A stretch of DNA of 64,000 nt from Gammaproteobacteria bacterium (GCA_035638695.1 DASQZM010000043.1:22795-86794), one strand, 5' to 3'. Numbered from the stretch's first letter, positions 2,464 through 23,200 are shown. A program made the numbers and translations. The notes: generated from the sequence alone by a model not told the origin.

Positions 2464-5400
2464 TCAGCCGCCGCGCGGCAGGCTCACCCCGTCACGCAGC
2501 AGCTCGGTGAAGGAATCGGCGGGCAGGGCCGGCGCATAGAAGAAACCCTGACCCTCGGGACAGCCTGCCTCGCGGAGGATGGCGGCCTGTTCCCCGGTCT
2601 CGATTCCCTCGGCGACGAGGCGGATGTCGAGGCTCTGCGCGACGGCGATGATCGCCCGCGTGATCTGAAGGTCCTCCGGGTCGCCGGGCAGGCCGCGGAC
2701 GAAGGACTGATCGATCTTGAGATAGTCGACCACGAACTGCTTGAGGTAATTCAGCGAAGAGTAGCCGGTGCCGAAGTCGTCGATGGCCACGGTCGGGCCG
2801 AGCGCGTGCAGCTGCGCCAGCATCCGGGCCGTGCGCTCCGGATCCTCCATGAGCATGCCCTCGGTGATCTCCAGGTCCAGGCGGGTCGGATCGAGCCCGG
2901 TTTCGGCAAGGATCCGGCTGACCCGGTCCACCAGCTCCCGGTCGCGGAACTGGCGCGGGGAGAGGTTGACCGCCATGCGCAGCGGGCGATGGCCGGCGCG
3001 CTCCCACGCGCGCGCTTGCGAGCACGCGGCGCGCAGGACCCACTCGCCGATCTGTCCGATCAGCCCGCTCTGCTCCGCCACCGGTATGAACTCACCCGGC
3101 CGCACCAGCCCGCGCCGGGGATGCTGCCAGCGAACCAGCGCCTCCGCGCCGATCACGCGCCCGCTGGCGAGCTCGACGCACGGCTGGAAATGCAGCACCA
3201 GCTCTTCCCGTTCCAGCGCCCGCCGCAGCTCGCCCGCGACCGCGAGCGTCTTCGCCGCCGCCGCGTTGATCTCGGGCGAGGCGAACTGGTACGTGTTGCG
3301 GCCGAGTTCCTTGGCTCGGTAGAGGGCGGCATCCGCGTGCTTGAGCAGGGTCTCCACATCCCGGCCGTCGAGGGGATAACAACTGATGCCCACGCTTGCG
3401 GAGGTGAACAGCTGCCCGCCGTCCTGCTCGAAAGGACGGGAAAGTACATCGATGACTTTCTGCGCCACCGCCCCCGCGTCCTGGCTGTCATCCAGCTCGT
3501 CCAACAGGACCGCGAACTCGTCTCCCCCCACCCGGGCCACCGTATCGCTCTCGCGAACGGCTTCCCGCAGCCGATCGGCGACCTGCTTGAGCAGGGCGTC
3601 GCCCGCGTCGTGGCCGAGGGAATCGTTCACGGTCTTGAACTGGTCGAGGTCGAGCAGCAGCAGCCCGGCAGTGCCGCGGCGGCGGCGCGCCCGCTGGACC
3701 GCTTCCCGCCCGCGTTCGAGGAGCAGGGCGCGGTTGGCCAGGCGGGTGAGAGCGTCATGATAGGAAAGGAACTCGAGCCGCGCCTCCGTGTCGCGGTGGC
3801 TGGACATGTCGTTGAAGATCGCCACGTAGTGCGTGATCCGGCCGGCATCGTCGCGCACCGCGCTAATCGCCACCAGCGCCGGATAGCGCTCCCCGTTCTT
3901 GCGACGGTGCCAGATCTCGCCCTGCCAGGCGCCGGTGGTCGGCAACACACGGGCGAGTTCGCGGTACAGTGCGGCATTGTGGCCGCCAGAGCCGACCTGT
4001 GGGGGCGTTTTCCCGAGCACTTCCTCCGCCGGGTAGCCGCTGATCCGGGTAAACGCGCCATTGACAGAGATGATGCGCCAGCCCGGGTCAGTGATCACGG
4101 CGCCCTCGACCATATTGTCCAGCGCGTTGGCCGCGATCCGGGCCTGGGCCTCGGCCTGGCGCCGTGCCGTGATGTCCTTGGCGACCCCGCTGATACCGAC
4201 GGTCTCGCCGTCTACCACGACCGGTCCGCCGGTCGCGGTCATCTCACGGCGCTCGCCACTGGCCGAGATCACGGCGAACTCCAGGCTGCGCAGCTCGCCG
4301 GCGAGCATGCGCCGGAACTCGTTCCAGCAGTTGTCGACATCCGCCGGATCGATCACCCGGGCAAATGACGGCAGGGCACGCAGCGACTCGAGGTCGCGGC
4401 CGGTCATCTCCTGTGCGCTCGCATTGGCGGAGACGAAGCGGCCCTCGCGGTCGAGAAAATAGACCGCGTCCGGGTTGTTGTCGAACAGGGAGCGAAAGCG
4501 CTGCCATCCTTCGTCGAGCAACCGCTCGGCGCGCCGTCGCTCGGTCACGTCGCGCACGATGCCGCAGACTTCGCGCACCTCGCCGTCGCGAACGATCGGC
4601 GTGCTGGCCAGCTCGACCGTGACGCGGCTGCCGTCGCACCGCAGCAGGTCCAGCTCGTACTGCTGCGCCTCCGCCACGAGGCTGCCGCGGAAATGGTCCA
4701 GCACCGTTTCGAGCTGATCCTCGGGGAGCACCTTGCGGAAGTGCTCCCCGATCACCTCTTCCGGGGCATACCCGGTCAGGCGGCTGGCGCCGTGGTTGAA
4801 TTCGAGAAAACGGCCCTCGCGGTCGACCACATACACACCGTCGGTACTCAGCTCGAACAGCGAACGGTAGCGTTCGCGGCTCTCGCGCTCCCGGGACTCT
4901 GCCTCGCGTCGCTCGCTCAGATCGCGCAGGATCACCGCCACGCGCGTCTTTCCGTTGGGATCGGCGAACGCCCGAGCGCTCACCTCTACCGCGACGCTGC
5001 TGCCGTCGCCCCGGACCAGTTCCAGCTCTCCACGCGCTTGGCCGTTGCGCGCGCGCTCCTTCAGGTAGGCCGCCATCGACGGTGCCGATTCCGCCACCAG
5101 CGCGCGCCAGCCGAGCCTTATCAGCTCTGCCTCGGTGCGGCCGAGCAGCCGGCAGGCGGCCGGGTTCGCCGCGAGGATTCCGCCGTCCGGCTGGTTCAGG
5201 AGGATCCCGTCGAGGCTGTGCTCGAACAGCATCCGCAGGCGCTCCTCGCTGGCCCGCAGCCGCGCGCCCGGTTCCCGCGACGGTGATACTTCCCGCACGG
5301 TCCCACGTACGCCGATGATGCGTCCGTCCCGGCGCAGGGGCACCGCCGTGCAGTGCGCCGTCACCTGCTCGCCGTTGCGGCGGACCAGCGTAGTCCGGAA

Positions 5401-5859
5401 GTGTAGCGATTCGCCGGCGAACGCCCGGGACATCAGCCGGCTCGCCCGGGCGAGCTCCTCGGGAGGCAGCAGGGCCGTGTAGGGCGTGCCCTTCAGCTCG
5501 TCCCGGGGCCACCCCAGGAGCATTTTCCCCTGCCCGCTGATACCCGCGATCCGGCCCTCGGCGTCGAGAGTGTAGACCGAGCCCGGGAACTCGGACAGGA
5601 AGGCGTCATGCACCTGCAGGCGCTGCTCCAGGGCGCCGCGCGAACGCTCGAGCCGGCGCAACCGGCGCCAGGCAAAGCCAAGCCAGAGCAGCAAAATGGA
5701 CAGCAGCAACACCAGCGCGACCACGGGCGAGAACGACGCGGCGTGCGATCGGCCCGGCGGCACCTCCCACAACCACAGGACGCCCGCAAGCAAGCCGGCG
5801 AGAGCGAGGGCCAGACAGACGCCCCTGGCCTGGTGCCGGAGCCGTCGGGGTGGACTCAT
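2464..5859 (-). CDS. Membrane-anchored multi-PAS GGDEF-EAL c-di-GMP signalling protein
   Basis: ORF 2464..6228. Likely start is the ATG at 5859 (MSPPRRLRHQ...), just before two TM helices. About five PAS-like repeats (e.g. RYRSLFELSTDGVYVVDREGRF, RFRSLFDNNPDAVYFLDREGRF). Intact GGDEF (VARVGGDEFAVLL) with an RESD I-site 5 aa upstream. Intact EAL (GAEALVRW). Confidence 0.9.
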   Translation of the reverse strand: MSPPRRLRHQARGVCLALALAGLLAGVLWLWEVPPGRSHAASFSPVVALVLLLSILLLWLGFAWRRLRRLERSRGALEQRLQVHDAFLSEFPGSVYTLDAEGRIAGISGQGKMLLGWPRDELKGTPYTALLPPEELARASRLMSRAFAGESLHFRTTLVRRNGEQVTAHCTAVPLRRDGRIIGVRGTVREVSPSREPGARLRASEERLRMLFEHSLDGILLNQPDGGILAANPAACRLLGRTEAELIRLGWRALVAESAPSMAAYLKERARNGQARGELELVRGDGSSVAVEVSARAFADPNGKTRVAVILRDLSERREAESRERESRERYRSLFELSTDGVYVVDREGRFLEFNHGASRLTGYAPEEVIGEHFRKVLPEDQLETVLDHFRGSLVAEAQQYELDLLRCDGSRVTVELASTPIVRDGEVREVCGIVRDVTERRRAERLLDEGWQRFRSLFDNNPDAVYFLDREGRFVSANASAQEMTGRDLESLRALPSFARVIDPADVDNCWNEFRRMLAGELRSLEFAVISASGERREMTATGGPVVVDGETVGISGVAKDITARRQAEAQARIAANALDNMVEGAVITDPGWRIISVNGAFTRISGYPAEEVLGKTPPQVGSGGHNAALYRELARVLPTTGAWQGEIWHRRKNGERYPALVAISAVRDDAGRITHYVAIFNDMSSHRDTEARLEFLSYHDALTRLANRALLLERGREAVQRARRRRGTAGLLLLDLDQFKTVNDSLGHDAGDALLKQVADRLREAVRESDTVARVGGDEFAVLLDELDDSQDAGAVAQKVIDVLSRPFEQDGGQLFTSASVGISCYPLDGRDVETLLKHADAALYRAKELGRNTYQFASPEINAAAAKTLAVAGELRRALEREELVLHFQPCVELASGRVIGAEALVRWQHPRRGLVRPGEFIPVAEQSGLIGQIGEWVLRAACSQARAWERAGHRPLRMAVNLSPRQFRDRELVDRVSRILAETGLDPTRLDLEITEGMLMEDPERTARMLAQLHALGPTVAIDDFGTGYSSLNYLKQFVVDYLKIDQSFVRGLPGDPEDLQITRAIIAVAQSLDIRLVAEGIETGEQAAILREAGCPEGQGFFYAPALPADSFTELLRDGVSLPRGG

Positions 5860-6306: not shown

Positions 6307-6582
6307 ATGAAGTCTATTTATGTCGGAAACCTGCCGTTCAGCGCGACCGAAGACGAGGTGCGCGAGCTGTTCTCGCCCTTTGGCACCGTCGGTACCGTCA
6401 AGCTGATCACCGATCGCGACACCGGCCGCCCGCGCGGCTTCGGTTTCGTGGAAATGGAGGCCGCCGAGGCCGATGCCGCGATCGAGGCACTCAACGGCAA
6501 GGAAATGGGGGGGCGAACCCTGCGTATCAACGAGGCCCAGCCCCGCAACCAGCAGCGCCCACGCCAGCGCGCCCGCTGGTAG
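6307..6582 (+). CDS. RRM-type (RNP-1/RNP-2) RNA-binding protein
   Basis: MKSIYVGNLPF (RNP-2) and RGFGFVEM (RNP-1), with a basic C-terminal tail. ATG at 6307 inside ORF 6295..6582. Confidence 0.9.
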   Translation: MKSIYVGNLPFSATEDEVRELFSPFGTVGTVKLITDRDTGRPRGFGFVEMEAAEADAAIEALNGKEMGGRTLRINEAQPRNQQRPRQRARW

Positions 6583-6704: not shown

Positions 6705-9122
6705 TTATCGGCCGGTCGGCAGCGGGAGATCGAGCTCCGCGCCGGGGGCCAGCGTGTACGTGCTGCCGTCGAGGGCCACGGTGACGGGACTCGCGGTGGA
6801 GCGCAAGGCGGTCAGGTGCACCCGGGCCGGTTCCAGCACCAGCTCCAGCGCGTGTCCGCGGTAGCGGATACGCACCGCCAAGCGGTCCAGGGCCTCCGGC
6901 AGGCAAGGATCCAGCCAGAGGGTGTCGCCGCGGGTCGAGATCCCGGTAAAGCACCGCTGGACCAGGTCAACGGTGCCGGCCATCGCACCCAGGTGGATGC
7001 CCTCGGCCGTGGTACCGCCCTGGATGTCGTGCACGTCGCTCGCCAGCGCTTCGCGGAATTCCGCCCAGGCGCGGGGCCGGTCCGAACGTGACAGCACCCG
7101 GGCGTGGGCGACCCGGCTCAGGGTGGAGCCGTGCGCGGTGCGCTGCAGGTAGTATTGCACGTTGCGCGGGATCGTCTCGTAGGTAAAGGGATAGTCCAGA
7201 CGGCTGAACAGCTCGCGCAGTTCCTCCGAGGAGAACAAGTAGAACAGCATCAGCACGTCCGCCTGCTTGGACAGGCGGTAGCGGTTGGGAGTATCGCCCT
7301 CGGCCTCCAGAATCCGGTCGAGGCGCTGGATGTCACCGTAGCGCTCCCGGTAGGCCGCCCAGTCGAGCTCGGCCAGCTCCTCGTAGCCCTCGAACTGACT
7401 GATGATGCCCTCCTCGTGGAAGGGTACCCGCATGCGGCGGCTGACCCGGTCCCACAGCTCGAGCTCCGGCGCGTCGATCGCAAGCAACCGCTCGAGCTCC
7501 CGTCGCCGGTCGGCCGGCAGCCGCTCGAGGAGCTCCAGCGCCGTCACCAGCACCCAGACCGCCATCACGTTGGTATAGGCGTTGTTGTCGAGACCCGGGC
7601 GGGACGCGTCGGGGTAGGCGTCGTGATACTCGTCCGGGCCCATCACGCCGCGGATCTCGAAGCGTTCCACGGACTCGTTCCAGCTTGCCCGGCTGGCCCA
7701 GAAACGCGCGATCTCGAGCAGCATCTCGGCGCCGTAGAAGGCCATGAACTCCATGTCGCCGGTCACCTGGAAGTACTGCCACACGTTGTAGACTACCGCG
7801 GCGTTGACGTGTAGCTGCAGATGGCTGTTGTCCGGTATCCAGCGCCCCGACCGGGGATTGAGGTGCAGTTTCTGGCTCTCCTCGCGGCCGCTGCTGCCGC
7901 TCTGCCAGGGGAACATGGCACCGCGCCACCCGGCGCCGGCCGCGGCGGCGCGAGCCACGCCGAGGCGCCGGTAGCGGTACATCAGCAGCGCCCGCGTGAT
8001 CTCCGGCATCCGCAGGTTGATGGTGGGGAACACGAACAGCTCGTCCCAGAACACGTGCCCCCGGTAGGCCTCGCCGTGCAGGCCGCGCGCGGGCACGCCC
8101 GCGTCGAGGTCCATCACGTGCGGGGACGCCGTCTGCAACAGATGGAACGTGTGCACGCGCAGCGCCCGCAGCGCCTCCCTGCCGTCGCTGCCGTCGCGTT
8201 CGGTGAAGTCGATCCCGAAGCGCTCCCACAAGTGCTCCCACGCCCGCACGTGGTCCGACTCCAGCGCTGTCCATCCGGCAGCGCCCCGCACCGCATTGCG
8301 GGCCGCGAGCAGCGGCTCGGAGATGGCGGCATCGCGCGAGCAGTACAGGGCGACCGTCTTGTCGACCGTCAGCGGCTCGCCCGGCGCGACCTTCACCCGG
8401 AACGTGCGTCCCACGCGGCCGCCCTCACGGGTCCGGCGCGCCGCGACCCGGAGCGGCTGCCCGTCTCGGGCCAGGCAAGTGCGTGAGGCCAGCGCGACCA
8501 CCAGGCGGGACTGGCGGGTGCGGACCCGCAGCCAGGCCTCGTCGTCGGCTTCGTGACCGGCATCCAGGAGCTCCAGGTGATGGCCGTCGAGCTCCCGGTA
8601 GCGCGCGACTCCGGTGTTGCTCACGTTGCCATCCAGGTCGGATGCCAGCTCCAGGGTGCCAGTCCAGTCCTCGGCCACGATGATCTGGCGCAGCGCGGCC
8701 AGGTGCGGCTCCGCCATGTGCACCAGACGCCGCTCCGAGAGGCGCGTGGTGCGTCCCGCCGCGTCCCGGAAGCGCAGGCGTGTCAGCAGCAACCCGCGAC
8801 GCAGGTCCAGGGTCTGGCGGTATTCCAGCAGGTCGGCATCGGCGAGGCGCAGCCATGCGCCGTCGGCGATACGCAGGCGCAGGCACAGCCAGTTGGGGAA
8901 ATTGACCAGGTCCTCGTTCTCCACCTCCCGTCCGGCGATCGCGGTCACGAGGCGGTCGTAACCGCCGGCGAGGTAGGTCCCCGGGTAGTGCACCCCGTCG
9001 GCCTCGGCCCAGGCCGACGCCCCGCGCGTGGCGAAGTAGCCGTTGCCCAACGTGCACAGCGCTTCCCGGAGCCCTTCCCCGGCGGGATCGAAGCCGTCCC
9101 GGGTCAGGGTCCAATCGCTCAT
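6705..9122 (-). CDS. Glycoside hydrolase family 65 disaccharide phosphorylase (trehalose/kojibiose/maltose/T6P phosphorylase class)
   Basis: ORF 6705..9368. The ATG at 9122 (MSDWTLTRDGFDP...LCTLGNGYFATRG) is a typical GH65 N-terminus. Contains the GVMGPDEYH motif with the catalytic Glu. The start overlaps the stop of the upstream gene (ATGA at 9119-9122). Confidence 0.9.
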   Translation of the reverse strand: MSDWTLTRDGFDPAGEGLREALCTLGNGYFATRGASAWAEADGVHYPGTYLAGGYDRLVTAIAGREVENEDLVNFPNWLCLRLRIADGAWLRLADADLLEYRQTLDLRRGLLLTRLRFRDAAGRTTRLSERRLVHMAEPHLAALRQIIVAEDWTGTLELASDLDGNVSNTGVARYRELDGHHLELLDAGHEADDEAWLRVRTRQSRLVVALASRTCLARDGQPLRVAARRTREGGRVGRTFRVKVAPGEPLTVDKTVALYCSRDAAISEPLLAARNAVRGAAGWTALESDHVRAWEHLWERFGIDFTERDGSDGREALRALRVHTFHLLQTASPHVMDLDAGVPARGLHGEAYRGHVFWDELFVFPTINLRMPEITRALLMYRYRRLGVARAAAAGAGWRGAMFPWQSGSSGREESQKLHLNPRSGRWIPDNSHLQLHVNAAVVYNVWQYFQVTGDMEFMAFYGAEMLLEIARFWASRASWNESVERFEIRGVMGPDEYHDAYPDASRPGLDNNAYTNVMAVWVLVTALELLERLPADRRRELERLLAIDAPELELWDRVSRRMRVPFHEEGIISQFEGYEELAELDWAAYRERYGDIQRLDRILEAEGDTPNRYRLSKQADVLMLFYLFSSEELRELFSRLDYPFTYETIPRNVQYYLQRTAHGSTLSRVAHARVLSRSDRPRAWAEFREALASDVHDIQGGTTAEGIHLGAMAGTVDLVQRCFTGISTRGDTLWLDPCLPEALDRLAVRIRYRGHALELVLEPARVHLTALRSTASPVTVALDGSTYTLAPGAELDLPLPTGR

Positions 9123-10702
9123 GACTCGTTGCCGCTCCCGGCCACCAGGCACTCCAGCAGCCTTGCCACCGCGTCCGGGTCCGCCAGGCGATAGCGCGCC
9201 GCCGTGGCACGCGGCCGGGCGGCCACCAGGATGCCGACCCCGCGCCCGGCGAGCGCGGCGAAGGCGTCCTCGTCGGTCTCGTCGTCGCCGACGTAGACGG
9301 GCAACACGCGGTCGGCATCGAGGTGCATGGCACGCATCAGCCAGTCCAGCGCGCGCCCCTTGTCCCACTCCAGCCGCGGGCGCAACTCGTATACCTTCTT
9401 GCCGCCGGTCCGCCGCAGCTCGGGATGGGCAGCCAGGACCTCGGTCACGGCCTGCCGCACCGCGGGAAGGTCGGCATGGGATACCAGCCGGTAGTGCACC
9501 GCCACGGCGTAGGTCTTGTCCTCCACCAGCGCTCCCTCGACGCCGGCGAGCCGCGCACCCAGGCGCGTTGCCGCCTCGTGAATCGCCGGGACGTACTTCT
9601 CGCCGCGGGGATACGCCTGGCGAAACCCGTTCGGGCCGCTGATCTCGAAGCCGTGGCTGCCGGCGTAGTAGAGGGCGTCGAGCCCCACCATGCGGGCGAC
9701 CTCCTCCCGCGCCCGGCCGCTCACCACCGCCACCGGCATCCGCCGCGCGAGCCTGGCCAGCGCCTCGCGTACGGACGCCGCCAGCACGGCCTGCTCCGGC
9801 CGGTCCACGATCGGTGTCAGGGTGCCGTCGTAATCCAGGAACAGGGCCGGATCCCGGCCTGCGAGCATCGCGGCGACCATCTCCGGCCGATCGGGTACGG
9901 CACCCGTGCTGGCAAAGGTGAACCGTTCCAGGTCATTCACCACCAGATCGGCCCCGGCCTGCCCCAGAAGGCCTGCGTTGCGGCCGTGGTCCAGGCCCAC
10001 GACCAGCGCGAAGCCGCCCCGGCGGCCCGCCTGGACGCCCGACACCGCGTCCTCCACCAGCATTGCTTCCCGGGGCCCGACGCCGAGCCGGCGCGCGGCT
10101 TCCAGGTACATGTCCGGCGCCGGCTTGCCCGCCAGGCCGGCCTCGGCCAGATCGACCCCGTCCAGCACCAGGTCGAACAGTCCCTCCAGGCGCGCGCGCT
10201 GGAGCACGAGGCGCCCGTTGCGGCTGGAGGTCACCGCCGCCGTGGCCAACCCCGCCTCCCGGGCCCGGTGCAGGAAAGCCACGGAGCGATCGAACACCTC
10301 CACGCCCCGGTCCTGCAGCAGCCGGAGGTAGCGCTCGTTCTTGCGATTGCCGATGCCGCACACCGTCTCCGCCGACGGCGGATCCCCGGGGGTGCCCCAA
10401 GGCAGCCGGATGCGGCGTGCGGCCAGAAACGCCGCGACGCCGTCATAGCGGGGCTTGCCGTCGACATAGGCGTAGTAATCCCGCTGCGCGTCGAACGGCG
10501 CCGGCCCGGCCCCGCCCGCGGGCGCGTGAGCGGCCAGGAAGTCGTCGAAGACTTCCTTCCAGGCCGCCGCATGCAGCGCCGCCGTGCGCGTAACCACCCC
10601 GTCGAGATCCGCGAGCACGGCGCGGATACGCCGGGGATCGATCACCGGCCGGCGACTGTCGGCCGGTGGCCGGCCGGCCTGGGCGGACTTGCGGGACGGC
10701 AT
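9119..10702 (-). CDS. Fusion protein: beta-phosphoglucomutase-like HAD domain + trehalose-6-phosphate phosphatase-like HAD domain
   Basis: The N-terminal half has ADLDGVVTRT (beta-PGM-type DxDG motif). The C-terminal half has LFLDYDGTLTPIV...YVGDDETDEDAF (OtsB-type motifs). Preferred start is the ATG at 10702, with GGGGAG upstream. Confidence 0.85.
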   Translation of the reverse strand: MPSRKSAQAGRPPADSRRPVIDPRRIRAVLADLDGVVTRTAALHAAAWKEVFDDFLAAHAPAGGAGPAPFDAQRDYYAYVDGKPRYDGVAAFLAARRIRLPWGTPGDPPSAETVCGIGNRKNERYLRLLQDRGVEVFDRSVAFLHRAREAGLATAAVTSSRNGRLVLQRARLEGLFDLVLDGVDLAEAGLAGKPAPDMYLEAARRLGVGPREAMLVEDAVSGVQAGRRGGFALVVGLDHGRNAGLLGQAGADLVVNDLERFTFASTGAVPDRPEMVAAMLAGRDPALFLDYDGTLTPIVDRPEQAVLAASVREALARLARRMPVAVVSGRAREEVARMVGLDALYYAGSHGFEISGPNGFRQAYPRGEKYVPAIHEAATRLGARLAGVEGALVEDKTYAVAVHYRLVSHADLPAVRQAVTEVLAAHPELRRTGGKKVYELRPRLEWDKGRALDWLMRAMHLDADRVLPVYVGDDETDEDAFAALAGRGVGILVAARPRATAARYRLADPDAVARLLECLVAGSGNES

Positions 10703-10821
10703 CGCGTCTCCCCATGGCTGCGTGGAACATCCGGGGCGGGGCCTGGCGCCTCCATCGGCTGCCACTGTACAGGACACGTCGGCGCCGCATTACAACCTAG
10801 CAGCACCACGCAGCCGGTTGT

Positions 10822-10835
10822 TTGATTCGCGTCAT
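10822..10835. promoter_or_regulatory. Candidate FNR/FixK-type box TTGATTCGCGTCAT (8/10 to TTGAT-N4-ATCAA)
   Basis: Centre is at 10828.5. On the minus strand a TAnnnT hexamer (TAGGTT, 10799-10794) places the box at -41.5 relative to a predicted start near 10787, upstream of the beta-PGM/T6PP-GH65 pair. Confidence 0.35.
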
Positions 10836-11028
10836 TCCGCGCGCCGGTTTGGCGGCGGCTGCGTCTCGTGTGCAGGGCTTTGCTCCGGGCCGATTCTCGA
10901 CTACCATTTACAAATACAGATGATTCCTATTCTCGTGTCTGGCGCGTCCGGCATCGCGCCGCACCGAGGTTCGCGCCCTACAGGACGTACCGGCACCGGC
11001 AGCCCACCGACGCCGATGCCGCCGGGGC

Positions 11029-11460
11029 GTGATCGACAGCCTCAATCCCGCCGCGGAACAGCTGTTCGGGTACCGCGAAAGCGAGCTCACGGGCGAGAAC
11101 GTGCGCATACTCATGCCCTTGCCCTACCGTGATGAGCACGACGGCTACCTGCAGCGTTACCTGGAGACCGGCGAGAAGCACATCATCGGCACCGGGCGCG
11201 AGGTTACGGGACTGCGCCGGGACGGCACTACCTTCCCCATGGATCTGGCCGTCGGCGAGTTCGAGCACGACGGCCACCGCTACTTCGCCGGCGTGGTGCG
11301 CGATGTGACTGACCGGCACGAGTACGAGAACGGCATGGGGCAGGGCTTGTCGATCTGCCACTCGATCGTACGCAGCCATGGCGGCCGCATCGGGCTCGCC
11401 CGCAACCATCCGCATGGCACGCGGTTCACGTTTGCCATACCCTTGCACGATGATCTCTGA
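11029..11460 (+). pseudogene. fixL: FixL-like heme-PAS sensor kinase relic: PAS retained, kinase core (H-box, N, G1, F boxes) deleted
   Basis: The 143-aa ORF reads [10 protein letters not shown]...[22 protein letters not shown]...[40 protein letters not shown]. It then jumps straight to a G2-box/C-terminal HATPase fragment, [38 protein letters not shown]. There is no phospho-acceptor His region. The N-terminal PAS strands are degenerate and there is an in-frame stop at 10921-10923. Confidence 0.6.
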
Positions 11461-12082
11461 TCCCGCGACGCCGACCGTCTACGTGGTCGACGACGAGAAC
11501 GCGATCCGGGACGCCCTGGGGCTTCTGCTGGAGACCGAGGGCTGGCGGGTCCTGAGCTACGAGTCCGCCGACGCCTTCCTCCGCGACTGCGGCCCCGGCA
11601 GCCGCGGGTGTGTCGTGCTGGACCTGAACATGCCCGGCCTGAACGGGCTCGAGGCCCAGGACCGCCTGCGGGAGCAGGGCATCGACATGCCGGTGATCAT
11701 CCTCACCGGCAATGCCGATGTGCCGGCGGCGGTCCGCGCCCTGAAGCACGGTGCGCTGGACTTCATCGAGAAGCCGTTCAGCGAACGCGACATGCTGGCC
11801 GTGGTCGGCCGTGCCCTGGAGCAGGACCGGCGGCGCGCGGAGGCGTCGCGCCAGCGCTCCGAGATCGGGGGGCGAGCGGCGACCCTGACCGGGCGGGAGC
11901 GGGAAATCATGGCGCTGATCGTGGCCGGTAAGGCCAACAAGGTGGTCGCCAGTGACCTGGGCATCAGCGAACGCACCGTGGAGCTGCACCGCTCGCGCAT
12001 CATGAAGAAGATGGGTGCCCGATCCGTGGCGGAGCTGGTGCAAATGAACCTGCAGCTGGGAAGACGGTACGAATCCTCGTAG
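11450..12082 (+). CDS. fixJ: FixJ-type two-component response regulator (REC + LuxR-type HTH)
   Basis: [23 protein letters not shown]...[14 protein letters not shown] (receiver Asp), then [44 protein letters not shown] (LuxR HTH). The start overlaps the fixL-relic stop by 11 nt. Confidence 0.85.
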
Positions 12083-12226
12083 GTTGGCGTGGCTGTTCAG
12101 CGAGCCGCGCGGGACACCCGCGTGGCGCTTCCACCGGTGCCGCGGTCGGGGTATCCTCCTGCAACCGGGCAGCGGCGGGGACGGCCGTCGATCCGGGAGC
12201 CGGCGAGCCGAGCGCCCGGCCGAACG

Positions 12227-12240: not shown

Positions 12241-12329
12241 TGTTCCGCCGCGGCGGCTGGTGTTGAATGGTCGCCATCGGCCGCCGGGAGCGGCGACGGA
12301 ACCGGATGCAAGCGAGACGGGCCAGGGGG

Positions 12330-12731
12330 ATGAACGCCAACGCCGTAAGACTGACCGACCCGGTCGGAACCGTGTACATCGTGGATGACGACGATGCCGT
12401 GCGCGACGGCGTGTCCCTGCTGGTCCAGGCCTGCGGCTGGACCGTGGCCGCGTTCGATTCGGCGGAGGCGTTCCTGTCCCGCTACGCGCGGGCGGAGAAC
12501 CAGTGTCTGGTGCTTGACCTGCACATGCCGGGGATGAACGGCGCGGAGCTGGAGGAGCACCTCCGGGCCCAGGGCAACGATATCCCGGTGATCGTGATCA
12601 CCGCGTACAAGGAAGATCCCCTGATTACCCGCGCACGTGCCGCCGGCGCCGCGCGGGTACTCACCAAGCCCTTCAACGACGCGGACCTGCTGGAGAGCAT
12701 CGAGCAGGCCGTGGGCAAGCCGCAGCCCTAG
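12330..12731 (+). CDS. Single-domain (CheY-like, FixJ-receiver-like) response regulator
   Basis: VYIVDDDDAVRDGVSLL...LVLDLHMPGMNGAEL...VIVITAY...LTKPF with no output domain. The start is ambiguous (ATG 12330 or ATG 12306). Confidence 0.8.
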   Translation: MNANAVRLTDPVGTVYIVDDDDAVRDGVSLLVQACGWTVAAFDSAEAFLSRYARAENQCLVLDLHMPGMNGAELEEHLRAQGNDIPVIVITAYKEDPLITRARAAGAARVLTKPFNDADLLESIEQAVGKPQP

Positions 12732-12909: not shown

Positions 12910-13671
12910 ATGGGCATGTCAGCGATCGTCGACCTGGAGCAGCGCAAAAATTCCTGCCTCTGGTGCGGAGCCAGGCAGAACTGTATCGCGGCATCGCTGG
13001 AGGCCGCGGATGCGGCCCTGCTGGAGCCGGTCAAGCGCCCCTCCCGGGTGGTCCGCCGCGGACAGCACCTGTTCCTCGCGGGAGACCAGCTGCCGGCGCT
13101 TTACGTGATCCGCTCCGGGTCGATCAAGAGCTACGTCATTACCGAGGACGGCGAGGAGCAAATCATCGGCTTCCACCTGCCCGGCGACACGATCGGCTTC
13201 GACGCCCTGGCCACCGGCGAGGCCCGCTCCAACGCCGCGGCGCTGGAGACCTCCAGCATCTGCACGCTGCCCCTGGAGGGGCTGTGGCAGGTCGCCGAGC
13301 GCTCGGTGACGCTGCGGCGCGAGCTGATCAGGGGCATGAGCCGGGAGGTGCTGCGGCTGACCGGAATGCTGCAGAACGAGCGTCGCACCGCCGATCAGCG
13401 CCTGGCCGCCTTCCTGCTGGACCACGCCGACAACATGGGCCGGCGCGGCTACTCGACCGAGGTGTTCAACCTGTCCATGTCACGCCGGGACATCGGCAAG
13501 TACCTGGACATGGCCACCGAGACGGTCTCGCGGGTGCTGACCCGGTTCCAGGGTCTGGGGCTGCTGGCGACCAACCGCAACGAGATCCGCCTGCTCGACC
13601 CGACGGGCCTGAAGCACCTGGTGACCGAGGGAGGGATCGGGGATACCTCCCGCGCGGTGACCCATCACTGA
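12910..13671 (+). CDS. fnr: FNR/ANR-type oxygen-sensing Crp-family transcription regulator
   Basis: N-terminal C-x2-C-x5-C (SCLWCGARQNC) plus a fourth Cys in ETSSICTLP, equivalent to FNR C20/C23/C29/C122. YVIRSGSIKSY...IIGFHLPGD cNMP-like barrel. Recognition helix ETVSR (E--SR). GGGGAG sits 9 nt upstream of the ATG at 12910. Confidence 0.9.
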   Translation: MGMSAIVDLEQRKNSCLWCGARQNCIAASLEAADAALLEPVKRPSRVVRRGQHLFLAGDQLPALYVIRSGSIKSYVITEDGEEQIIGFHLPGDTIGFDALATGEARSNAAALETSSICTLPLEGLWQVAERSVTLRRELIRGMSREVLRLTGMLQNERRTADQRLAAFLLDHADNMGRRGYSTEVFNLSMSRRDIGKYLDMATETVSRVLTRFQGLGLLATNRNEIRLLDPTGLKHLVTEGGIGDTSRAVTHH

Positions 13672-13849: not shown

Positions 13850-13863
13850 TTGATACGGGTCAA
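13850..13863 (+). promoter_or_regulatory. FNR/ANR box TTGATACGGGTCAA at class II position (-41.5)
   Basis: 9/10 match to TTGAT-N4-ATCAA with a perfect TTGA-N6-TCAA core. The -10-like TCTAAT at 13886-13891 gives a predicted +1 near 13898, and the palindrome centre at 13856.5 is then exactly 41.5 nt upstream. Confidence 0.6.
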
Positions 13864-14038: not shown

Positions 14039-14257
14039 ATGGCCGGGACACGCACCACCAGTACCAGCTCGGCCAAGGCCGCCGCGGCGATGCGCAAGGC
14101 GATCCCCGAGCACGAGCGCCACCGGCGCATTGCCGAAGCTGCCTATTGGCGCGCGGAGAAGCGCGGCTTCCCGGGCCGTGATCCCCTCGAAGACTGGTTG
14201 GTCGCGGAAGCCGAGTTCGAGCACACGAACGACCGCGGCTCCCGCGCCAGAGACTGA
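14039..14257 (+). CDS. Small DUF2934-like protein (72 aa)
   Basis: The ATG at 14039 is preceded by GGAAGGAGG. RIAEAAYWRAEKRGFPGRDPLEDWLVAEAEF matches the DUF2934 signature as I remember it. Confidence 0.7.
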   Translation: MAGTRTTSTSSAKAAAAMRKAIPEHERHRRIAEAAYWRAEKRGFPGRDPLEDWLVAEAEFEHTNDRGSRARD

Positions 14258-14317
14258 CCCGATGCTCGGGAGCGCCGACCGCAACCGTACGGAGGGGTCG
14301 CTGCGAGGACGCCCGGC

Positions 14318-15007
14318 ATGACACAGCCAGGCGGGCAGTACGCCGCCCCCGAGCCCGATCCCGGGGAGTTCGCGGTCAAGGACTGTGCCCTGATCGCGAT
14401 CGCCACCGGCCTGCGCGCGGTCACGCTCGGGGACCTGCAGGACCACCTCCGGGTCGTGGCCCTGGAGAGCCTGTACTACCACTTCTGGGGCGGCCTGCTG
14501 CAGCAGCGGTTCGAGCCGCGCGAGTACAACAACGACTTCGCCGAGTGGGCGCGGCACGCGCTGCACTATGCACCGCTGGCCGAACGGCTGGCGGTGCTCG
14601 ATCCGACCGATCACCCGGACCTCGGGGACCTGCGCCGGGAGCTTCTCGACCGGGTCGAGGAAAGCCTGTACGAATCCGAGGATCTCGGCTGGATGCACGC
14701 GATCCGTCCGTTCGAGTTTATCCGCTGCCAGACGGTCGTGTTCGACACCGACCGGCGCATCCGGGGCCCGGACGAGCTGGCCGACGTGATCCCGGCGCTG
14801 CCGCCGAGCAGCCTCTTCTACCATTTCATCGACGCCCGCCGGCGCGAGCCGCTCGGCGTGGACGACTTCCGCGCTTGGCTGCAGGGCTGGGGACCGGACC
14901 GGCAGGCGCTGATCGACCGGCTGTCCGGGGTCGACCCCTACGAGGGCGGGCTCAACGAGCTGCGCGCCAGCCTGGTGGCCGCGTTCACCGGCGGGGAGGG
15001 CGCGTGA
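14318..15007 (+). CDS. Uncharacterised protein built from two tandem ~95-aa repeats, translationally coupled to treT-like gene
   Basis: 229 aa with an internal duplication: SLYYHFW/SLFYHFI, NDFAEWA/DDFRAWL, LAVLDP/LSGVDP, LRRELL/LRASLV. The stop TGA (15005-15007) overlaps the GTG start of the next gene. Confidence 0.8.
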   Translation: MTQPGGQYAAPEPDPGEFAVKDCALIAIATGLRAVTLGDLQDHLRVVALESLYYHFWGGLLQQRFEPREYNNDFAEWARHALHYAPLAERLAVLDPTDHPDLGDLRRELLDRVEESLYESEDLGWMHAIRPFEFIRCQTVVFDTDRRIRGPDELADVIPALPPSSLFYHFIDARRREPLGVDDFRAWLQGWGPDRQALIDRLSGVDPYEGGLNELRASLVAAFTGGEGA

Positions 15008-16242
15008 GCCTCCTGGACCAGTACGCCGAGGTGGTCGGGCCGGCGATGATCGACCACCTGGCGCAGCTGGCCGCGCCACTTCAGGGCGCGCGCGTGGTGC
15101 ACGTCAACTCCACCCGCGTCGGCGGCGGAGTCGCGGAGATCCTGGGCAAGCTGGTGCCGCTCACGCGCGAACTCGGCGTCGACGCGCAGTGGGAGGTGAT
15201 CAGCGGCGACCAGGACTTCTTCCAGTGCACCAAGAACATGCACAACGGCCTCCAGGGCTCGCCGGTCAATCTTTCCGAACGCCTGGTCCAGGCCTACGAG
15301 ACCACCACGGAGCGGGCCGCCAGCCTGCTGGGCGCGCGGCTCGCCGAGGCGGAGTTCGTGTTCATCCACGATCCGCAGCCTGCCTACCTGCTGCGCTTCT
15401 TCCCTGAGCGGCACGGCAAGTGGATCTGGCGCTGCCATATCGACGTCAGCCACCCGTACCGGCCGGTGTGGAAATACCTGCGGAACATCGTCGGCGGCTA
15501 CGACGCGAGCGTGTTCTCGCTGGCCGCGTTCGCCCAGGCGCTGCCCTGCCCGGAATACATCGTCCCGCCCAGCATCGATCCGCTCGCGGACAAGAACATC
15601 GACCTGGAAGACGCCGAGCTGGGGGCCGTTCGCGCCCGTTTCGGGCTGGATCCGCAGCGGCCGCTGGTGGTCCAGGTTTCGCGCTTCGACCGCTTCAAGG
15701 ACCCGGTGGGGGTGATCCACGCCTTCCGGCTCGCGCTCCGCTACCTGCCCCGGCTGCAGCTGGTGCTCGCAGGGGGCAGCGCGAGCGACGACCCGGAGGG
15801 CGACGTGGTGCTGCAGGAGGTGCGGTCCGCCGCGGCGGACGATCCGGACGTGCACGTACTGCTGCTGCCGGCGGACGACCATCGCACGGTCAATGCCCTG
15901 CAGCGCTGCGCCGACGTGGTCCTGCAGAAATCCTTGCGCGAGGGCTTCGGCCTGACCGTCACCGAGGCCATGTGGAAACATCGCCCGGTGATCGGCGGCA
16001 ACACCGGGGGAATCCGGCTGCAGGTGTTCGACCACCATACCGGCTACCTGGTCAGCACCCCGGAAGGCGCTGCGCTGCGGATCCGGCACCTGATCGCGCG
16101 GCCGGACCGGATCGCGGAAATGGGACAAAAGGCGCACAATCTGGTGCGCGACAATTTCCTGATCACGCGTCAGCTGCGGGAATACCTGACGCTCATGGTC
16201 GCGCTGCTGCACGCAGCGCGCGAACGCATCGAGCTGGGTTGA
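15004..16242 (+). CDS. treT: TreT-like trehalose glycosyltransferring synthase (GT4 family)
   Basis: The GTG at 15004 is preceded by [24 protein letters not shown]...FIHDPQPA...WRCHIDVS...[15 protein letters not shown]...[20 protein letters not shown] closely parallels archaeal/bacterial TreT as I recall it. Confidence 0.78.
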
Positions 16243-16267
16243 CGCCGCCGGAGACGGCAACCGAGGC

Positions 16268-18402
<2,135 letters not shown>

Positions 18403-18406
<4 letters not shown>

Positions 18407-20223
18407 TCCGGCGCCACCGCGAGACCGGGTTCGGCGCCGAGATCATGCCCGACCGCCAGGTGCGTTTCCGGCTCTGGGCGCCGGCGGCGGCGTCGGTCTG
18501 TGTGGTGTCGGACGGCAATCCGGAGCTGCCCATGGCCCCGCAGCGCGGGGGCTGGTTCGAACTCGTCACGGGCGTTCTGGGGCCCGGGGACTGCTATCGC
18601 TACCGCATCGACGGCGGCGCGGCCTGTCCGGATCCCGCTTCGCGCTACCAGCCGCAGGACGTACACGGACCCAGCGAGGTGATCGATCCCGCAGCCTTCG
18701 AATGGCGCGACGACGGCTGGCGCGGGCGGCTCTGGAGCGAGGCCGTGATCTACGAACTGCACCCGGGTACGTTCACGCCCGCTGGCGGCTTTGACGGCGT
18801 GCGCGGGCGCCTGGGCCATCTCTGCGACCTGGGCGTCACAGCTATCGAACTGATGCCGGTGGCGGACTTCCCCGGTCGCCGCAACTGGGGCTACGACGGC
18901 GTGCTGCCGTTTGCACCCGACAGCAGCTACGGGCGCCCGGAATCCCTCAAGCGTCTGGTGCAGGCGGCACACGGCCACGGCCTGATGGTCCTGCTCGACG
19001 TCGTCTACAACCACTTCGGCCCGGAAGGCAACTACCTGCACGGTTACGCCCCGCAGTTCTTCTCCCGGCGCCACCACACGCCCTGGGGCGCCGGGATCAA
19101 CTTCGACGGGGTCGATGCCGGCCCGGTGCGCGACTTCTTTGTCGAAAATGCCCTTTACTGGCTCGAGGAGTATCACCTCGACGGCCTACGCCTGGACGCC
19201 GTGGACACCATCGCGGATGACTCGCGCCCGGACATCCTGGACGCGATCGCCGCGGCCGTGCACGACGGACCGGCCCGTCGGCGGAGCGTCCACCTGGTGC
19301 TGGAGAATGACCGCAACGACCCACACCGCCTGGACCGGCCGAACGGCTACACGGCCCAGTGGAACGACGACCTGCACCACGTTCTGCATCTGCTGACGAC
19401 CGGCGAGCGCGAGGGCTACTACCGGGACTACGCGGACCGCCCCGCGGCGCACCTGGCGCGCTGCCTCACCGAGGGCTTCGCCTACCAGGGCGAGCCCTCG
19501 GCCTTCCGCGGCGGGCGACCGCGCGGCGCGCCCAGCGGCCACCTGCCGCCCGGCGCCTTCGTCGGCTTCCTGCAGAACCACGACCAGGTCGGCAACCGGG
19601 CGCTGGGCGAGCGCATCACGGCGCTGGCGCCCGCCGACGCGGTGCGCGCGGCGCTCACCATCCTGCTGCTCGCCCCCGCACCGCCACTGTTGTTCATGGG
19701 CCAGGAATGGGGCAGCAGGCGGCCGTTCCTGTTCTTCTGCGACTTCGAGCCCGCCCTGGCACGCAAGGTCGCGAACGGGCGGCGGGACGAGTTCGCGGAT
19801 TTCCCGGCGTTCGCCGGCCCCGGGGCACGCCGGCGCATCCCGAACCCCGGCGACCGGAACACCTTCACCCGCTGCGTGCTCGACTGGGGCGAGATCGCGC
19901 GCGACGGCCACGCGGCGTGGCTGTCCCTGCACCGTGAGCTTCTGGCACTGCGCCGGAACCTGCTGCCGGGCCTCGCCGGCGCCCGCGCCGAAAATGCAGG
20001 CGCCATCGGACCGGGAGCCGTGTGCATCACGTGGACCCTCCCTGACGGATCCCGGCTGACCCTCGCCGCAAACCTCCACGCCGCGCCCTCGGCGCCGCTG
20101 CCGCAGGCCCGCGGCGAGTTGCTGTTCACCGCCGGCGAGGCCCCGTCGCCGGCCGGGGACAGCTGGCGGCTGGCGCCCTGGAGCGCGCGCTGGTACCAGG
20201 ACCGGGGGGAGGCCCGCGGGTGA
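18403..20223 (+). CDS. treZ: Malto-oligosyltrehalose trehalohydrolase
   Basis: The GTG at 18403 overlaps the glgX stop (GTGA). [18 protein letters not shown]..., [39 protein letters not shown] and [11 protein letters not shown] motifs. An alternative ATG at 18445 would cut the conserved FGA. Confidence 0.9.
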
Positions 20224-23200
20224 ACGCGGAAGATTTGCTGGAGCGCCTGGCGCGCTGCCACGGCATCGAGCCGGCCTACCACGATATCTGGGGCAACCAG
20301 CACGCGACCAGCGCGGAGACCGCGCGCGCGCTGCTGCGCGCCATGGGGGTGCCGGCGGACGATCCGGCGGCGATGCGCGCCGCACTCGCGGTAGCCGGGG
20401 AGCGCCCGTGGCGCGAGGTGCTCGATCCGGTGCTGGTCACCTCCGCCGATGCGCCGCTGCACATCCGCCTGCATCTGCCCGCAACCGCGCCCGAATCGCC
20501 GGGTCGCTGGCGGCTGCTGCCCGAGGCGGGCGAGCCACGCGAAGGCACCCTGCGCCTCGACGAGCTCGCCGTGCTGGAGCGGCGCGAGATCGACGGCGTC
20601 GCCTGCGGCCGTTACGAGCTGGTGCTGGACGGCCTGCCAGCCGGATATCACCGGTTCGAGCTGGACGGCCAGCGGCCCGCCGGCATGCCGGTGATCGCCG
20701 TGCCGCCCCGCTGCTACCTCCCGCCTGTCCTGGAGCAGGGCGGGCGGCTGTGGGGCCCGGCGGTGCAACTCTATTCCCTGCGGTCCGCACGCAACTGGGG
20801 CATCGGCGACTTCACCGACCTCGACGACCTGGCCCGGCTGGCCGGCGACCTCGGCGCCGACATGCTGGGCCTGAGTCCGCTGCATGCGCTGTTCCCGCAC
20901 CAGCCCGAGCGCTGCAGCCCCTACCGGCCCTCCAGCCGGCTGTTCCGCAATGTTCTCTACCTCGACGCCGAGCGCCTCCCGGAGCTGGGCGAATGCCCGG
21001 AGGCCGCCGCCATGGTGCAGGATCCCGACTTCCAGGCGGAGCTGCAGGCACTGCGCGAGAGCGAGCTGGTCGACTACCCGGGGGTCGCGGCGGTCAAGCT
21101 GCCACTGCTGGAGCGCCTCCACCGGCACTTTCGCGAGCGGCACCTGGAACCGGACAGCGAGCGGGGCCGGGCGTTCCGGGAATTCCGGCGCTCCGGGGGC
21201 CGCGCGCTGCAGCGGCACGCCCTGTTCGAGGCGCTGCAGGAGCACTTCCTGGAGCAGGACCCGCCCGTACCCGATTGGCCGTCCTGGCCGGAGCGCTACC
21301 GGCGACCGGACACGCCGCAGGTCGCGGCGTTCGCCGCCAGCCGGGCCGGCCGCATCGAATTCCATGCCTGGCTGCAGTGGCTGGTGCGGGAGCAGCTCGA
21401 TGCCGCCGCGCGGCGGACGGGGGAAATGGCAGTCGGGCTGTACCAGGACCTCGCCGTGAGTGTCGACCCGGACGGGGCCGAAGCCTGGGCCAACCAGGAT
21501 CTCTACGCCATCACCGTCAGCATCGGCGCACCCCCGGACGACTTCAACCTGCGTGGGCAGGACTGGGGGCTGCCGCCGCCGATCCCGCAGCGCCTGCGCC
21601 GGGCGGCGTACGCGCCGTTCATCGCCACCCTCCGGCATAACATGCGCGACGCCGGCGCATTGCGCATCGATCACGTGATGGGGCTGATGCGGCTGTTCTG
21701 CGTGCCCCGCGAGGCCTCTCCCGAGCAAGGCGCCTATGTCGCCTATCCGCTGGACGATCTGCTCGGGATCCTGGCGCTGGAGAGTCAGCGCAATCGCTGC
21801 CTGGTCATCGGCGAAGACCTGGGCACGGTGCCCGACGCGCTGCGCCAGGCGCTGGCCAACCGCCGGATCCTGTCGTACCGGGTGCTGATGTTCGAGAAGA
21901 CCGGGCGCGGCTTTCGCGCGCCGGAGGAATACCCGCCGCAGGCGCTAGCCACGGCCGGCACCCACGACCTGCCGACCCTGTCCGGCTTCTGGGAGGGACG
22001 CGACCTGGTGCTGCGCACCGAGCATGCCCTGTTTCCGAGCGAGGCCCTGCGGGACGCGCAGCAGGCACAGCGGGAACGGGACCGGAGCGACCTGCTCCAC
22101 GCCCTGCAACGCGAGCGGCTGCTCCCGGAGGGAGTGGACACCGATCCCGCCGCGGTGCCGCGCATGACCGAGGCCCTGGCCGGTGCTTTGCAGCGCTATC
22201 TCGCCCGCAGCCCGGCGATGCTGATGGCGCTGCAGCTGGAAGACCTGTTCGGTCAGCGCGAGCAGATGAACCTTCCGGGGACGGTGGACGAGTACCCCAA
22301 CTGGCGGCGCAAGCTGTCCCTGGGACTGGAGCGCTACCCGGCGGACGGCCGGCTGCATCGGGTCGCCGACGCGCTCGCCGCCGAAGGGCGCAGCGGCGCG
22401 GGGGCGGGGCCCCGACAAGAACCCCGCCCGCAGGGCGACGACCCGGCCGTGGTCCCGCGGGCCAGCTACCGGCTGCAGCTCAACGCCGGGCTGACCTTCG
22501 CCGATGCGCGTGGCCTGGTGGGCTACCTGGACTCGCTCGGGATCAGCCACTGCTACGCCTCGCCCTGCCTGAAGGCGCGACCGGGCAGCAGCCATGGCTA
22601 CGACATCGTCGACCACTCGGCCCTGAACCCCGAGCTCGGTGCGCGGGACGAGTTCCAGGCCTGGACCGACGCCCTGCACGCTGCGGGCATGGGACTGATC
22701 CTGGACATCGTGCCCAACCACATGGGGGTGATGGGCGCCGACAACAGCTGGTGGCTGGACGTGCTGGAGCAGGGGCCGGCCTCTCGCTACGCGGACTTTT
22801 TCGACATCGACTGGCACCCGGTCAAGCCGGAGCTCCACGGCAAGGTGCTGGTTCCGGTACTCGGCGACCACTACGGGGTGGTGCTGGAAAGCGGCGCCCT
22901 GCGGCTGGAGCTGGACCCGGCCAAGGCCTCCTGGAGCGCCTTCTACCACGAGCACCGCTTCCCGCTGGACCCGGCGACCTGGCCACGGCTGCTGCGCAGC
23001 CAGCTCGGCCTGCTCGCCGACCGGCTCGGGGCTGACCACCCGGCGCCACCGGCGCTGGAGCGGCTGGCCGGCGACCTGGAGGAGCTGCCCGAACGAACCG
23101 ATCCCTCCCGGGAGCGCTGCGCGGCGCGGCTCCAGGCCTGCCGCGCCCACAAGCAGACCCTGGCGGCGCTGTGCCGGCAGCATCCCCAGGCCCGGGAGCA

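Follow-up and report, generated by a model that had tools for sequence, protein, structure and literature searches.

A probable fixL pseudogene remnant upstream of an intact fixJ in an uncultured gammaproteobacterium

The closest described counterpart of the locus presented here is FixL of the FixLJ two-component system, known from Bradyrhizobium japonicum and Sinorhizobium meliloti (heme domain structures 1dp6 and 1d06, respectively). The fragment found at this locus shares with FixL the heme-PAS core and its proximal histidine, a C-terminal ATPase tail, and the position upstream of, and overlapping, the gene for a FixJ-family regulator. It differs from FixL in lacking the first PAS domain, a start codon, an intact Aβ strand, the DHp/HisKA domain with its phospho-acceptor histidine, and the N, G1 and F boxes.

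In Francisella tularensis Schu S4, the sensor-kinase pseudogene FTT1544 lies beside the retained regulator gene FTT1543 (PMC6584805). There, as here, one partner of a tandem two-component pair has decayed and the other is intact. The present locus differs in that decay is at an early stage, leaves an open in-frame fusion ORF and has taken two routes in two sister lineages, and in that the regulator is demonstrably under purifying selection. Literature searches for fixL pseudogenes or orphan FixJ proteins returned nothing specific.

A further likeness is to the short LOV proteins, such as PpSB1-LOV (3sw1/5j3w, weak PDB matches of the fragment), which also consist of a single PAS core with a short C-terminal extension and no effector. 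However, short LOV proteins form conserved families and have a complete five-stranded PAS fold plus dedicated helices at both termini. The fragment, by contrast, is devoid of Aβ, carries as its extension a piece of an ATPase fold that is predicted to be disordered, and has no conserved relatives.

The window, that is, the whole 64,000-nt stretch of DNA that was analysed, contains the fragment at positions 10924-11460. This region is probably what remains of a canonical two-PAS fixL that became a pseudogene recently, its 3′ end surviving as the leader of fixJ.

The remnant reading frame and its neighbours

The features of the locus are as follows (L179 and L176 are relatives with intact kinase boxes, described below).

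10792..10938, plus strand: intergenic segment that separates the fixL remnant from the divergent HAD/trehalose-phosphatase gene, with the motif ATGATTCC at 10920
10921-10923, plus strand: in-frame TGA that bounds the remnant reading frame on its 5′ side
10924..11028, plus strand: degenerate N-cap and Aβ of the heme-PAS, from three-frame translation and comparison with L179 and L176 DNA
11029..11460, plus strand: fixL remnant ORF with a GTG start, 143 codons (143 aa)
11029..11328, plus strand: heme-PAS core from Bβ to Iβ with the first linker residues, 100 uninterrupted codons
11326..11328, plus strand: deletion junction, with one GAG kept of the GAG...GAG direct repeat around 609 nt
11329..11460, plus strand: C-terminal tail of HATPase_c, which begins at the G2 box GMGQGL, continues in frame from the PAS core and ends with the stop codon
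11450..12082, plus strand: fixJ, 210 aa, Response_reg and LuxR/GerE HTH, intact
12306..12731, plus strand: receiver-only response regulator, 141 aa, Response_reg with E=1.5e-25 (Pfam)
12910..13671, plus strand: FNR-type regulator, 253 aa, cNMP_binding and HTH_Crp_2 (Pfam), N-terminal Cys cluster

The first 100 codons of the remnant ORF correspond to a FixL-type heme-PAS core and the last 43 to the extreme C-terminus of a kinase ATPase domain. In the remnant frame no ATG, GTG or TTG occurs between the TGA at 10921-10923 and the GTG at 11029, which is the next possible start. The 143 codons are free of stops and frameshifts and keep the heme-pocket residues, whose single identities follow the BjFixL numbering.

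A sequence-only reading of this DNA had aligned the frame with the heme-PAS core of Bradyrhizobium FixL, including the proximal His, and had placed the extreme C-terminus of an HATPase domain directly after it. A PDB search returned the same alignments, to the heme domains of S. meliloti FixL (1d06, E=5.6e-35) and B. japonicum FixL (1dp6/1xj4, E about 1e-31); the proximal His of both 1d06 and 1dp6 has an aligned His in the remnant, and the FG-loop region is also matched. The tail, comprising approximately the last 43 residues, aligns to the FixL kinase part of YF1 (4gcz, 332-374). A Pfam scan of the stop-to-stop translation bears out this order of domains, with matches to PAS (PF00989, E=8.4e-12, residues 33-128) and to HATPase_c (PF02518, E=2.7e-7, profile positions 56-110/111 only) and no match to HisKA. 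On the NCBIfam model of the rhizobial FixL equivalog (NF041777) the remnant scores 150 bits, below the cutoff of 850; an intact FixL from a relative (L176) also stays below it with 373 bits, so that the model is too narrow for this clade.

FixJ is FixJ-family but short of equivalog level: it matches Response_reg (3.6e-27) and GerE (1.4e-20) in Pfam, and its NCBIfam FixJ score of 232 bits lies just under the cutoff of 255. Its receiver residues DD, D (in LDLNMP), T and K are present by eye. The fnr gene begins 0.83 kb after fixJ, and its product matches Aliivibrio fischeri FNR (5cvr, E about 1e-47); in the alignment CLWCGARQNC lies opposite CQDCSISQHC, and SSIC opposite SMVC. All four cysteines, those of C-x2-C-x5-C and the central one (the Cys122 equivalent), are thus in place; the NCBIfam Fnr score is 195.7 bits, below the cutoff of 228. 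A tblastn search with the FixL kinase core found no other FixL-like core in the 64-kb window. These results agree with the sequence-only reading, which had described an intact fixJ with no cognate kinase in cis and a Cys-cluster FNR 0.8 kb downstream. A 1131-aa multi-PAS neighbour was considered as a replacement kinase and rejected on its domain content, PASx5-GGDEF-EAL. The host is apparently trehalose-metabolising.

The locus recurs in many assemblies. Assemblies from ENA, Logan and JGI, which cover several sample series, encode the exact 143-aa product on at least 19 contigs; an identical FixJ is encoded on 24-25, and the gene order is the same in all of them. Over 10700-12200, the 16 loci that were fetched share at least 99.93% identity with the window, and one contig (L011) is 100% identical over 12.6 kb. 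The single variable site, 11259 G/A, lies inside the remnant and is synonymous (GAG/GAA). The contigs carrying the remnant represent one near-clonal population sampled many times, and mis-assembly is ruled out. That a mis-assembled, chimeric or collapsed contig, or a minor allele, stands in for what is in reality a full-length fixL has negligible probability. Metagenome assemblies can in principle collapse repeats, which is the sole point found in favour of such an artefact, but at least 19-24 contigs, produced by three assembly pipelines from several sample series, have an identical junction and identical flanks, the deletion is flanked only by the 3-nt GAG and not by long repeats, and a second species has decayed independently at the same locus.

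Lesions mapped on intact orthologues

A search with FixJ found three lineages that share the synteny of the locus (GH65, HAD/trehalose-phosphatase, fix module). The first, L017, is the gammaproteobacterial MAG SMAG_U11089, accession DASQZJ01, with a FixJ 87% identical to that of the window. In the second, L179/L180, FixJ is 84% identical, and the contigs come from the SRR260742xx series, as do several of the remnant contigs. The third, L176-L178, has a FixJ 76% identical to that of the window. The dS values place the window, L017 and L179 at nearly equal distances from one another (0.36-0.42) and L176 outside this group; by tail sequence the window groups with L017. The receiver-only gene has the same position in all these relatives.

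L176 displays the complete arrangement GH65 / HAD-TPP / 502-aa FixL / FixJ / receiver / FNR, and its FixL is intact, with PAS, heme-PAS, HisKA and HATPase domains. The FixL of L179 is partial, as its 351-aa ORF is cut by the end of the contig, and has every kinase box. Among 5.8 billion clustered proteins the nearest full-length FixL is that of L176, which is 70% identical to that of L179; the next is at most 50% identical. In L176 and L179, as in the window, fixL lies directly upstream of fixJ and overlaps it.

Alignment to L179 and L176 defines the breakpoints of the large deletion. In blastn, window 11019-11328 matches L179 10-317 with 89% identity and one 2-nt gap, and window 11326-11520 matches L179 924-1118. 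Position 11328 of the window equals 317 of L179 and 11329 equals 927; therefore, 609 nt (203 codons) are missing, in frame. The sequence across the junction, marked by a slash, is ...CAC GAG TAC GAG/AAC GGC ATG GGG... The deleted codons, 106-308 of the partial L179 FixL, carry the boxes H (HEVNQPL, at 133), N (246), G1 (286) and F (300); the G2 box GMGQGL (310) is retained in the remnant. The heme-PAS core is 89% identical to that of L179 at the nucleotide and 90% at the amino acid level, and the tail is 81% identical to that of the intact orthologue.

The region of the Aβ strand carries smaller lesions. Two extra bases lie at 11027-11028 (window GCC GGG GC GTG vs. L179 GCC GGC GTC), and about 7 codons of Aβ are out of frame, reading AHRRRCRRG instead of ..TDADAAG. 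The latter frame, which matches IDPAG in L179 and TIDAAG in L176, differs from that of the remnant ORF. Further 5′ the remnant frame again encodes a typical PAS N-cap, which implies a second, +1, indel near 11005. This second indel is probable and comes from comparison with the more distant L176, as the L179 contig ends there. The scrambled first PAS strand thus appears best explained by two small indels (+1 and +2). The lesions together leave one open frame from 10924 to the fixJ start, the small indels summing to +3. An in-frame deletion combined with indels that sum to +3 is what is expected of a very young pseudogene, and equally of continued selection.

The 5′ end was compared with L176, in which the motif ATGATTC..AT also occurs in the intergenic region, 232 nt upstream of the start of the intact fixL. 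From this motif to the heme-PAS the distance is 661 nt in L176 (before RAILD) vs. 52 nt in the window (before RALQD). Hence about 0.6 kb is absent at the 5′ end, comprising the 5′ UTR, the start codon and PAS1; relative to L176 the loss includes 143 codons with PAS1 and the start codon. The ATG at 10920 was rejected as the ancestral fixL start because the same motif lies 232 nt upstream of the true start in L176 and because the downstream frame differs between the window and L017.

The intergenic segment 10792..10938, in which the motif lies, presumably holds promoter or regulatory elements of the fixJ operon. Its homologue in L017 is 7567-7715 (67% identity, E=2e-14); the homology is significant up to approximately 10938, and beyond this point the MAFFT alignment is only 55% identical. 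A simple promoter and terminator scan found no sigma-70 consensus or terminator at the remnant locus, an Rfam scan of the window gave no match, and an FNR/FixK box search returned one site, away from the remnant.

Disabling lesions relative to intact syntenic orthologues, the mark of a pseudogene, are thus present. The five-stranded PAS fold (Aβ to Iβ) is incomplete, since Aβ is out of frame or degenerate. HisKA/DHp and the phospho-acceptor His are absent from the remnant, the orthologue's H box falling within the deleted 203 codons. The HATPase_c domain, which when complete has N, G1, F and G2 boxes, is in effect reduced to the G2 box and the last strands. The sequence-only reading had put the lost kinase part at about 200 aa, carrying the phospho-acceptor His and the N, G1 and F boxes, and had noted the in-frame stop at 10921 and the scrambling of the first PAS strands. 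All of this holds on the orthologues, including the structural interpretation; the two small indels that probably lie behind the scrambling, the lost N-terminal PAS and the loss of the gene's own start codon had escaped it.

The same alignment bears on the proposal that the remnant is a member of an ancient conserved family of short heme-PAS proteins without a kinase domain in their ancestry. Many short PAS-only homologues exist, mostly contig-end fragments, in a search effectively limited to proteins of at most about 250 aa. Nevertheless, the last 43 residues of the remnant are a kinase ATPase tail 81% identical to that of the intact orthologue, and both junction flanks are colinear with intact fixL at 80-89% nucleotide identity. 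A family without kinase ancestry is thereby excluded, and the proposal can be regarded as already refuted.

The ancestor would have been a protein of about 500 aa with the order PAS-hemePAS-HisKA-HATPase, its gene overlapping fixJ in a conserved fixL-fixJ-receiver-fnr module. Its decay involved a 5′ loss of about 0.6 kb that took away the 5′ UTR and start codon together with the first PAS. Two small indels (+1, +2) probably hit the Aβ strand of the heme-PAS, and a 609-nt in-frame excision between GAG triplets removed the DHp with its phospho-acceptor His together with the N, G1 and F boxes.

Independent decay in a sister lineage

Only about 460 nt separate the HAD/trehalose-phosphatase gene from fixJ in L017. 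A tblastn search with intact FixL found no PAS in this interval; it contains FixL pieces only, including ..AVPDADMER and VFPPFLTTKE, in different frames. In the DNA alignment the L017 tail carries indels of -1, -12 and -11 nt relative to L179. L017 retains ..VPDADMER and the F-box sequence VFPPFLTTKE, both of which are gone from the window, and the window retains the PAS that L017 has lost, so that the large deletions are independent. The fixL of L017 is a different, more advanced wreck of the same gene, and in this lineage the PAS is dispensable.

The part of fixL nearest to fixJ has fared differently. In the window the remnant stops at 11458-11460 and the fixJ ATG is at 11450, an overlap of 11 nt; across the window, L017, L179 and L176 the fixJ ATG lies 8-11 nt inside the upstream ORF, and none of the four has a Shine-Dalgarno-like sequence upstream of fixJ. 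Over the 121 nt before fixJ the window and L017 are 92% identical, vs. 55-66% further upstream. An ORF of 131 codons in L017 (7616..8011) ends at the fixJ coupling site despite three indels.

These observations, together with the single frame to the fixJ start that the lesions in the window jointly preserve, favour an exapted leader ORF. In such a leader the encoded protein would be irrelevant, and a translated frame ending at 11460 would be selected for termination-reinitiation coupling to fixJ. This is nonetheless very unlikely. Long open frames are frequent by chance in GC-rich DNA, and many spurious ORFs of more than 100 aa occur here. An in-frame deletion with compensating indels arises by chance roughly 1 time in 9, too often to be a strong argument. 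The leader, too, would need a start for its translation, and none is convincing. Finally, read in the former fixL frame, the tail substitutions are synonymous, which points to past selection at the protein level and not to mere openness of the frame.

Selection on the module and the fate of the remnant

Pairwise dN/dS values for the three genes downstream of the remnant are as follows.

fixJ: window-L017 0.20; window-L179 0.22; L179-L176 0.25
receiver-only gene: all pairs 0.06-0.19
fnr: window-L017 0.14

For fixJ, all comparisons with the window, including the window-L176 pair, lie between 0.20 and 0.22. The flanking metabolic genes have dN/dS values of 0.16-0.23, to which those of the fix module are similar. 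Three-point arithmetic on the pairwise values gives branch dN for fixJ of 0.046 in the window, 0.024 in L017 and 0.046 in L179. As dN is equal on the window branch and on that of L179, which has an intact fixL, loss of fixL has not relaxed fixJ. Purifying selection thus still acts on all three genes in the lineages that have lost the kinase, with dN/dS values of 0.06-0.22 overall and 0.06-0.12 for the receiver-only gene.

The remnant itself does not show the dN/dS near 1 of relaxed selection. Its PAS block (100 codons) has a value of 0.19 against L179, which is not elevated, and with L176 as outgroup 3 replacements are specific to the window vs. 2 to L179. In the tail, 35 codons compared with L017 contain 6 synonymous and 2 non-synonymous changes (dN 0.039, dS 0.28, dN/dS 0.14), and both non-synonymous changes are confined to the final four codons, where the frame overlaps the start of fixJ. 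Had evolution been neutral along an entire branch (dS about 0.2), dozens of replacements would be expected; so few are seen that either the lesions are recent or a product is still selected. The low dN/dS of the remnant is read here as recency of the lesions, and continued selection would give the same values and fits them equally. Within the population, dN/dS on the remnant has no power, with one synonymous SNP among 16 near-identical contigs.

Continued selection would concern either a small heme-binding O2/NO protein or a translated leader whose termination at 11460 drives re-initiation at the fixJ start; that the remnant is kept for one of these ends is unlikely. If the leader version were true, a dead sensor gene would have been exapted as a cis-acting expression element for its former partner.

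The protein version holds that the 143-aa ORF from GTG 11029 is a neo-functionalised heme-binding PAS mini-protein, which acts alone or modulates FixJ, the receiver-only protein or a kinase in trans. It is quite improbable, as is the binding of O2, NO or CO proposed for such a stand-alone PAS module. The open ORF with its conserved heme-pocket residues, the in-frame deletion, the dN/dS of 0.19 against the intact orthologue with no excess of window-specific replacements, and the synonymous nature of the sole SNP in the population are all in its favour. An AlphaFold model of the ORF, computed with an alignment of PAS homologues, has a mean pLDDT of 82.9 and a core above 90, although the core value mostly reflects the alignment. 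However, the model contains three strands only (57-62, 68-80 and 83-92) and a tail that is unstructured, with pLDDT below 52. The pairing of Aβ with Bβ is absent, as Aβ is missing and Bβ unpaired, and a PAS sheet devoid of its central Aβ strand is unlikely to be stable. The only start, GTG 11029, arose by a GTC-to-GTG change at an old Val codon and has a GGGG run 1-2 nt upstream of it, which is no usable ribosome-binding site. The DHp, through which the kinase contacts its regulator, is gone. The architecture is confined to one near-clonal population, and L017 has deleted the PAS and frameshifted the tail, yet its fixJ, receiver-only gene and fnr stayed under selection. The stand-alone heme-PAS protein that the sequence-only reading offered as one outcome is therefore disfavoured; the other outcome it named, regulatory replacement in progress, is compatible with the data.

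On the preferred reading, that of a young fixL pseudogene, the losses appear, from the sequence comparisons, to be recent and lineage-specific. The locus is in any case unable to encode a kinase: the remnant is incapable of autophosphorylation and of docking to and phosphorylating FixJ, and so is no oxygen-sensor kinase. The 143-codon ORF is still open because the large deletion is in frame and there has been little time for point mutations. The 3′ end of the remnant would persist as the carrier of the translation-initiation context of fixJ, because the fixJ ATG lies inside it with no Shine-Dalgarno sequence, as in the intact relatives. Expression of fixJ may still require the remnant to be transcribed and perhaps translated. 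FixJ and the receiver-only protein would now be served by a kinase encoded elsewhere, and direct O2 sensing at the locus would rest on the downstream Fe-S FNR.

The locus offers a natural snapshot of the dismantling of a two-component system, in which the kinase is lost piecemeal and differently in two sister lineages. It implies that FixJ is fed by another kinase or pathway and suggests that low-oxygen signalling has been rewired in this uncultured gammaproteobacterium. The process is ordinary gene decay, of which this is a well-resolved new example with parallel decay in a sister, and it does not define a new class of system.

In a search of cluster representatives, the remnant is the sole single-stretch 143-aa match among the representatives listed and forms its own cluster; the search is dominated by giant multi-PAS proteins and shows this own-cluster status only. 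A metagenome scan with the remnant yielded PAS domains of unrelated kinases, 50-70% identical, of which L102 and L099 were kept as generic references only; the apparent coverage of remnant residues 1-137 by L102 is a spurious extension into its DHp. The 143-aa "PAS domain protein" predicted by three pipelines is the fixL remnant and should not be labelled a sensor.

Genes enclosing the fix module

The fix module, made up of the fixL remnant, fixJ, a receiver-only gene and fnr, is enclosed by a trehalose/glycogen gene cluster with an upstream part on the reverse strand and a downstream part on the forward strand. Synteny of the upstream part is retained in L017, a sister lineage with a differently decayed fixL, and in the syntenic relative L176, which has an intact FixL.

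Genes around the fix module
2464-5859, - strand: 1131-aa protein with five PAS domains, then GGDEF and EAL (domain search)
6307-6582, + strand: 91-aa protein with a single RNA-recognition motif (RRM_1, E=6.3e-24)
6705-10702, - strand: upstream part of the cluster; GH65 phosphorylase and a HAD-phosphatase/trehalose-phosphatase fusion
14039-25319, + strand: downstream part of the cluster; DUF2934, DUF5752, TreT-like glycosyltransferase, two CBM48/alpha-amylase enzymes and a 1699-aa MalQ_N-GH77-alpha-amylase fusion

The RRM_1 gene is kept at the same position in all the near-clonal population contigs that carry the stub locus. One PAS domain of the 1131-aa PAS/GGDEF/EAL protein shows weak similarity (34% identity) to the FixL PAS.

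FNR/FixK-type sites

The only perfect match to TTGA-N6-TCAA in the 64-kb window, where 0.09 would be expected by chance, is the FNR/FixK-type box TTGATACGGGTCAA at 13850-13863 (+ strand). It is located between fnr and the DUF2934/DUF5752/TreT genes, and hints that the trehalose genes downstream of it may be under FNR or FixK control.

A degenerate Crp/FNR-like half-palindrome, TTGATTCGCGTCAT, which is not significant alone, was spotted by eye in the intergenic region 5' of the fixL remnant (10819-10832, + strand); its counterpart in L017 is TTGACTCGCGTCAC.

The receiver-only gene and kinase-plus relatives

Within the module, constraint is strongest on the receiver-only gene that follows fixJ (12306-12731, + strand), which has a dN/dS of 0.06-0.07 between the window and L017, both of which are kinase-less. 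Its product contains only two Cys, which sets it apart from the 4-Cys FixT of Caulobacter.

The syntenic relatives L179/L180, in which fixL is apparently intact and FixJ is 84% identical, derive from Logan SRR26074213 and SRR26074214. Stub-carrying contigs are also present in this sequencing series (SRR26074207-216), so sister populations with and without the kinase seem to share a habitat.
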